A stretch of 63,094 bases of DNA, counting the filler, from Sluysia triapertura (lineage: Eukaryota): the NCBI GenBank assembly GCA_046118255.1. It is 5 parts of 5 records of this genome, joined end to end, with 100 filler letters (N's around TTAATTAATTAA, not from the genome) between each part and the next. Parts side by side here need not be neighbours in the genome. Positions count along the whole stretch, not along the records: positions 21,900 to 34,783 come from JBJNIA010075051.1; 4 more parts are not named here. The stretch is one strand, 5' to 3'. The position numbers and the translations under genes were made by a program. Under the pieces are notes generated by a model. The model was not told the origin of the DNA, did no database searches, and saw only the letters and a list, made by a program, of their open reading frames with translations. Positions 22,442-22,613 of the stretch are shown here, in pieces (positions within the stretch are counted from its first letter, which is position 1; the number at the start of each line of letters is the position of its first letter).

Positions 22442-22613
22442 CCGCCATCAGCACATTTAAAATCATTTTAAAACGTCATTAATATGTCAGTGCTGATGAC
22501 GGCTGACCAGTATTAAAATTTAAATCACATAAGCTGCCGAGAAAAATCCAATTCACTATCACCCAATCAGAGTAAACTCAGCTTTATTTACAATCAAAAC
22601 ACTCTGATTGGGT
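22442..22613 (+). other. Twin-hairpin element, copy A
   Basis: Stem 1 ccgccatcagcac (22442-22454) / gtgctgatgacgg (22490-22502); stem 2 acccaatcagagt (22561-22573) / actctgattgggt (22601-22613). Confidence 0.85.

Follow-up and report, generated by a model that had tools for sequence, protein, structure and literature searches.

A twin hairpin with paired base changes ahead of orphan ORF clusters in a repeat family of Sluysia triapertura

Introduction

LTR retroelements of bdelloids carry extra 3' ORFs, which they share with other retroelements (PMC5408684), and some accessory ORFs are known to be antisense and to have a promoter to themselves (PMC7264820). The accessory ORFs of gypsy elements are of unknown function or of the ubiquitin or exonuclease type, and are sometimes antisense with a promoter and tandem repeats (PMC5408684, PMC7264820, PMC11963269, PMC6431247). 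The CTE is a structured export element at the 3' side (PMC12789967). Structured cis signals and mobile-element accessory ORFs are each known kinds of feature.

The twin-hairpin element described here was found in two copies, A and B. It resembles Ty3/gypsy elements with 3' ORFs (bdelloid Vesta and Juno, plant Grande and Retand, planarian Burro) in that ORFs lie near the end of an element. It differs from them by having clusters of 3-6 short overlapping ORFs together with a twin hairpin, in a module without a linked pol or LTR pair. The layout of Grande and Retand resembles the order antisense ORFs, hairpins, (AAT)n and repeat encountered here (PMC7264820, PMC11963269); a text search found no mention of secondary structure in the Grande and Retand papers and none of a hairpin in the Retand paper. 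Retroviral cis RNA elements (MPMV CTE, RSV direct repeats, Psi/dimer signals) are likewise structured, near a terminal repeat and protein-bound (PMC12789967), whereas the element analysed here, of putative function, has no sequence or Rfam match and consists of two distinct stems of 13 bp whose loops are long and AT-rich. Terminon/Penelope-like elements also combine many co-oriented accessory ORFs with a terminal RNA fold, but the Terminon fold is a hammerhead ribozyme (PMC6431247) while our element has CTGATGA without the rest of the core. Inverted repeats, a stem-loop, a microsatellite, the absence of a secure TSD and a high copy number are shared with Helentron/DINE-1 elements. The Helentron subTIRs and stem-loop, however, are located about 60 bp or less from the ends (PMC4067079), whereas the hairpins here are internal, ~950 bp from the nearer end in the case of B, and are followed by long ORFs.

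A literature search gave no match for this layout; it covered a minority of the subscription journals, and main texts rather than supplements. Pattern scans for the twin hairpin gave 0 matches in one case and 9 metagenome and 13 viral loci in others, but the stem-2 partner is present in none of these (0/22) and we judged them to be chance matches. Neither the pattern scans nor a protein search found a relative outside this genome.

The analysed window

The window, that is, the whole stretch of 63,094 nucleotides that was analysed, is built from five contigs with N linkers; A and B are located in different contigs. GC content per kb is about 20-34% along the window, which contains an innexin (Pfam E 1e-13), an ArfGAP fragment, a hAT remnant and tRNA-derived repeats. 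This content and the GC values point to an AT-rich animal genome. The innexin (20300-21542, +) is very divergent and spread over two frames (Pfam E 1e-13 and 2e-12); a protein search found no homolog of its first part among longer database proteins, which suggests a poorly sampled animal lineage.

Several other features were seen in the window. The tRNA-derived, SINE-like family has members at 39262-39427, 41959-42120, 16940-17047 and 17705-17857. At 39503-39591, a strong hairpin whose arms are (CAT)n/(ATG)n lies beside a hammerhead-core-like word at 39597 and ~150 bp from a tRNA-derived repeat. The frame 12341-12655 (-), for which Pfam was blank, resembles by its motif the terminal restriction-like endonuclease of R2-type non-LTR elements. 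A tandem array (10040-10451) has units of 30, 60 and 179 bp, with open frames on both strands.

Stems and paired changes in copies A and B

The twin hairpin of copy A (22442-22613) is homologous to that of copy B (54452-54599, minus strand). Hairpin 1 of A (22442-22502) has arms at 22442-22454 and 22490-22502, with 13 positions and a loop of 35; hairpin 2 (22561-22613) has arms at 22561-22573 and 22601-22613, with 13 perfect pairs, a loop of 27 and an inverted CCAAT pair in the arms. The counterparts in B are hairpin 1 at 54553-54599 (loop 13) and hairpin 2 at 54452-54503 (13 pairs, loop 26), so that loop 1 differs by 22 nt. An earlier note on this DNA had described the same two-stem layout for A and B, and both stems were indeed found in place. 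The stems of A and B account for 4 of the 6 hairpins in the window that score at least 26 (12 hairpins were found in all); three block shuffles yielded a single such hairpin in total.

Between A and B, stem 2 shows three double-sided changes, as the earlier note had it, and no one-sided change; all 13 pairs are kept (13/13). The compensation claimed for stem 1 stands for four double-sided changes over 13 positions, but three one-sided changes had been overlooked, two of which break a pair in B while one restores a pair. This amounts to 7 double-sided changes in 26 stem positions, seen in two sequences. The chance of changes meeting at partners is 0.0035 for stem 2, 0.049 for stem 1 and 1.7e-4 jointly, for stems that had been chosen because they pair. 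All 7 compensations are Watson-Crick transitions and hence as valid for DNA.

It had also been proposed that pairing rather than sequence is maintained. This does not hold for the 3' arm of stem 1, where the motif CTGATGAyGGCT is retained in B despite the loss of two pairs, nor for the close family, in which the arms keep their sequence as well. The word A[T/C]CAG is present in the arms of both hairpins.

RNA folding gave z-scores of -6.6 for A and -3.6 for B (0/200 shuffles each), and DNA folding gave -6.0 and -5.1. RNAalifold recovered stem 2 on both strands and misaligned stem 1. The antisense strand has the lower folding energy (A: -62.9 vs. -54.3 kcal; B: -53.5 vs. -46.7 kcal), but its z-scores are no better than those of the sense strand (A: -5.0 vs. 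-6.6; B: -3.2 vs. -3.6). Mismatches on the ORF strand are C.A rather than T.G at a ratio of 6:1 independent positions (p 0.06); C.A corresponds to G.U on the other strand, which is G/T-rich and by itself favours G.U. Given this bias, the leader on the ORF strand that had been suggested is only a candidate.

A 4-bp alternative helix (22500-22503/22536-22539, with an equivalent in B) shows one compensatory change and would form at the expense of the outer portion of stem 1. The majority variant at 22539 in sequencing run X1, described below, breaks one of its pairs.

Homology of the surrounding block

When A and B were compared with composition taken into account, the score was 102-106, whereas 15 shuffles reached at most 76.5 across the window (z 8.4). 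The plain score of 56 is within that of shuffles (49-66), and the pair is absent from the blastn list of the window. The homology is real but distant. It covers a non-coding block of ~670 bp (22010-22682, +; homologous to B 54892-54389) which holds short motifs, an (ATT)n tract (22213-22387), both hairpins and AATCATTATTTTT. The upstream part of this block gives z 6.7 between A and B (0/200), and conservation in the block is highest at its core, the twin hairpin. Because the flanks are homologous past both hairpins, a MITE (TIR element) was rejected, and the possibility raised in the earlier note, that the symmetry is due to conversion between MITE TIRs flanked by TSDs, does not apply.

The G-poor (C/A-rich) module end at 21900-22127 is cut by the contig start and is possibly a terminal repeat. 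A third, longer hairpin (22034-22097) is located inside this region of highest sequencing depth; B has only a decayed match to it, and a partial relative occurs at 14521-14406 (minus).

The Rfam search that the earlier note had recommended gave 4 matches across the window (E up to 1), with none on the twin-hairpin element. Known motif classes were also rejected: a hammerhead core scan matched only at 37743 and 39597, Rfam gave no hammerhead at E up to 1, and the motifs of hammerhead, C/D snoRNA, SL RNA and the CRESS nonanucleotide are not conserved in B or in the X1 variants.

Depth and variation in run X1

Run X1 contains the hairpin stretch and may be the window's own sample. From this run, 1,406 contigs were aligned on 21900-25300 and 268 on 22395-22640. 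Depth, which is not copy number, is 34,770-69,250 at the C/A-rich module end, 5,505-7,182 on hairpin 1, 9,320-17,109 on hairpin 2 and 1,135-3,288 in the spacer; it peaks apart on each hairpin and dips in between. It reaches up to 5,891 on the first of the four downstream ORFs and 326-1,395 on ORFs 2-4, and is 24-91 in the unique flank past 24750. The contrast between element and flank indicates a large family, in line with the mobile repeat family proposed in the earlier note.

None of the 35 variable places listed (0/35; these represent 40 of the 52 X1 variant rows) is in the arms (52 bases), whereas 10 are in the loops (62 bases; p 0.0016). Of the indel rows, 11/12 are in loops, 1/12 is in the spacer and 0/12 are in arms. 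Variants are easier to detect in the loops, between conserved arms, than in the arms themselves. A frequent variant at 22600 would give stem 2 one more pair. With arms invariant among the listed variants while loops vary, the data support that the stems are under constraint.

ORF clusters

The hairpins of A end 191 bp ahead of four overlapping orphan ORFs of 153, 99, 184 and 205 aa (22804-24658, +), and X1 depth is at flank level near 24750. In B, the nearest frame of >150 aa begins about 620 bp downstream; the frames that lie closer are all short. The earlier note had placed both copies ~70-200 bp upstream of ORF clusters. A 150-codon open frame has a chance of 1e-6 here and the ORFs of A therefore derive from real genes; because X1 contigs show indels across 21900-25300, some ORF boundaries may be breaks in copy A. 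The X1 differences inside the ORFs lack a third-position bias.

Homology between ORF clusters A, B, C, D and E was not detectable (z up to 2.0), with the exception of a weak match between ORF4 and the ORF at 61440 (70 vs. a null maximum of 55). Protein searches were blank for ORF3, ORF 60824 and the RING ORF; PHROGs gave nothing better than E 0.0015 and PDB nothing under E 0.028. Two assignments from atlas clusters were not accepted, namely ORF3 as RAG1/Transposase_21-like (match 0.86) and ORF 53254-53835 as PlsB_N (0.91, with 148/256 features). The AlphaFold model of ORF3 has a pLDDT of 31, which is too low to use. A sigma-70 promoter scan was at background level and is irrelevant in a eukaryote.

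The C-terminus of ORF4 (24428-24562, +) is weakly similar to the UBC9 E2 fold (E 0.065) but is devoid of the catalytic cysteine. ORF2 has a 150-bp internal duplication (23276-23567), and one X1 contig skips 210 bases there.

Relatives C and E

A probable third copy, C (60092-60224, +), is degenerate, with its stems largely lost, and precedes ORFs at 60389-61808. Its homology has z 6.2 and it is the best match to B among 622 tiles, whereas a fold z of -0.8 and an nhmmer E of 5.8 count against it. Upstream of C is a C/A-rich region (58438-58960, +) homologous to B 55421-55203 (z 8.4). B and C have an end motif in common, found only at 55512 and 58456, which ends in CA on the antisense strand. 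A possible but weak fourth relative without hairpins, E (34393-34574, -), lies ahead of ORFs 34206-32329; it shares two words with B only, and its z of 4.2 drops to 2.4 over the whole block. C and E precede ORFs although their stems are gone; each of the four relatives (A, B, C, E) faces a cluster of short ORFs.

A younger repeat (25846-26092/59096-59387, 87% identical over 153 bp) is found downstream of A and between the upstream motifs and the hairpin region of C.

Module B and its gypsy-like context

Module B (52733-55547, -; about 2.8 kb, with approximate ends) comprises a C/A-rich region, the hairpin block and decayed orphan ORFs. It is bordered by the two halves of a decayed accessory gene of the gypsy-like element, with a paralog at 50059-50624 on contig 5. 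The first half (55562-55759, -; paralog of 50059-50265, z 7.5) scores 82 at 55759-55562 (null maximum 49) and 30 before 52720; the second half (52345-52697, -; paralog of 50300-50624, z 5.4) scores 70 and 68 at 52697-52345 (null maximum 57) and 40 after 55520. Differences by codon position (19/13/31) are coding-like. The gap of ~2.8 kb between the halves includes copy B, and the spacing fits a simple insertion. Since module B parts the halves of a gene, the module appears to be mobile, although recombination between related elements would also explain the layout.

Unit A spans at least 2.85 kb by X1 depth. At the module ends, neither a TIR nor inverted similarity was found. One 6-base word common to both B junctions is a TSD candidate, with a chance of about 0.2. 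Comparison of the start and end of A revealed a faint direct repeat (z 4.0) that ranks only 3rd of 622 tiles.

A decayed gypsy-like 3' region (46695-50839, +) has an integrase-tail-like stretch (by eye), a protease remnant, orphan ORFs, a RING gene, an exonuclease-like gene and a purine tract-TGT. The protease remnant and the RING gene are upstream of the gene at 50059-50624; the RING gene (Pfam E 2.8e-9) has a decayed paralog at 62413-61934. A 33-bp stretch with the purine tract and TGT closes both copies of the decayed gene and occurs just twice in the window (50826, and 52128 in 52147-52115, minus); we take it to be a putative gypsy PPT-LTR junction. The exonuclease-like gene, so named by eye, would be DEDD-like by its motifs, a label that Pfam and PDB did not confirm. 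The retroviral-type aspartic protease remnant (46945-47520, +; E 0.014) follows the integrase-tail-like stretch, the reverse of the usual gypsy order, and is perhaps a captured accessory protease. Homology between the hairpin region and the exonuclease-like gene was dismissed as inconsistent (C-G z 7.2, B-G 0.8, C-F -0.3).

Interpretation of the twin hairpin

We tentatively favour, at somewhat less than even chance, that the twin hairpin is a cis-acting folded RNA signal (export, packaging or replication) of an LTR-retroelement-type family. A protein would bind the folded hairpins and the element RNA would then be exported, packaged or copied. Free loop length, fixed arms and paired changes fit a folded single strand rather than DNA sites at fixed spacing, and the structure would form in RNA; the retained 3' arm of stem 1, together with A[T/C]CAG in both hairpins, suggests a sequence-specific protein site as well. 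The structure may be formed by the strand opposite the ORFs, which would read antisense ORFs, hairpins, (AAT)n and the highest-depth G/T-rich repeat. Only the gypsy-like neighbours suggest that the family is retroelement-derived: Pfam detected no gag, protease, RT, RNase H or integrase in modules A, B and C (the protease remnant is in the neighbouring element only), and a transposase was not found either, but the modules may be fragments. At the module, neither a PBS-like site nor paired repeats (LTRs) were found, with A cut by the contig start. The stretch ahead of the candidate repeat start is 80% purine in A, as in a purine tract, but 43% in B. These points, antisense z-scores that do not surpass the sense ones, covariation seen in two sequences, and ORFs behind the stem-less C and E count against this reading.

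The same DNA could double as the promoter of the ORF cluster, and the RNA-signal and promoter readings are not exclusive. Control at the DNA level, in which the element would be an internal promoter or enhancer of the cluster with inverted protein sites or cruciforms, is rather unlikely in our view but is kept because of the CCAAT enrichment: this motif occurs 9 times in four 200-bp leader windows, picked afterwards, vs. 1.7 expected (p 9e-5). In A, the inverted CCAAT pair is about 65-110 bp ahead of a conserved TCATT, which we take to be initiator-like. That all four relatives face ORF clusters and that both hairpins have A[T/C]CAG in their arms would also suit such control. NF-Y needs the CCAAT core, however, and B turns both stem-2 cores into CCAAC, thereby keeping the pairing and losing the NF-Y core; the 22-nt difference in loop 1 is a further point against it. 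The element might also act as single-stranded DNA, as the origin or terminator with which a Helentron-like element, a small circle or another rolling-circle or circular replicon is copied. A and B fold well as DNA, are units of like size (about 2.7-2.8 kb), have a strong strand skew and lack a TIR or secure TSD, and the faint start-end repeat of A also counts in favour. We nevertheless hold this to be improbable, given the poor rank of that repeat, the absence of a Rep or helicase from the ORFs scanned with Pfam, and hairpins that lie inside the module, 0.5-1 kb away from its end, where those of Helentrons are terminal (PMC4067079).

Slightly less credit still is due to a non-LTR retroelement whose 3' recognition stem-loop would lie on the antisense strand, with an (AAT)n tail after it. 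The hairpins do precede the (AAT)n tract on that strand, depth drops steadily away from the tract side as 5' truncation would give, and the G.U bias is on the antisense strand; yet in A, B and C homology extends 200-900 bp further than the tract, which therefore does not mark the end, and Pfam found no LINE ORF on either strand. It is very improbable that the hairpins lack a function, their arms being homogenised by template switching or conversion like tiny MITE-like inverted repeats. Through conversion, a change in one arm would reach the other, the compensations are all simple transitions and they were seen in two sequences only, but in the listed X1 variants the loops vary and the arms do not, and the homologous flanks mean that the hairpins are not independent insertions.

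A bolder reading, which we regard as unlikely, is that the modules belong to a hitherto undescribed class of enzyme-less mobile gene cassettes of ~2.8 kb, made of a twin-hairpin signal and polycistronic-looking orphan genes (with a dead E2-like fold in one of them). Such cassettes would be mobilised in trans and exchanged among giant retroelements, possibly via a circular intermediate.

Implications

Few cis-acting RNA signals have been mapped in invertebrate retroelements, and little is settled about the expression and exchange of accessory genes. A short, covarying structure that is present in many copies lends itself directly to probing and to reporter assays. If it is true that a 2.8-kb module moves without enzymes of its own, this would be a new route for the shuffling of cassettes among mobile elements.
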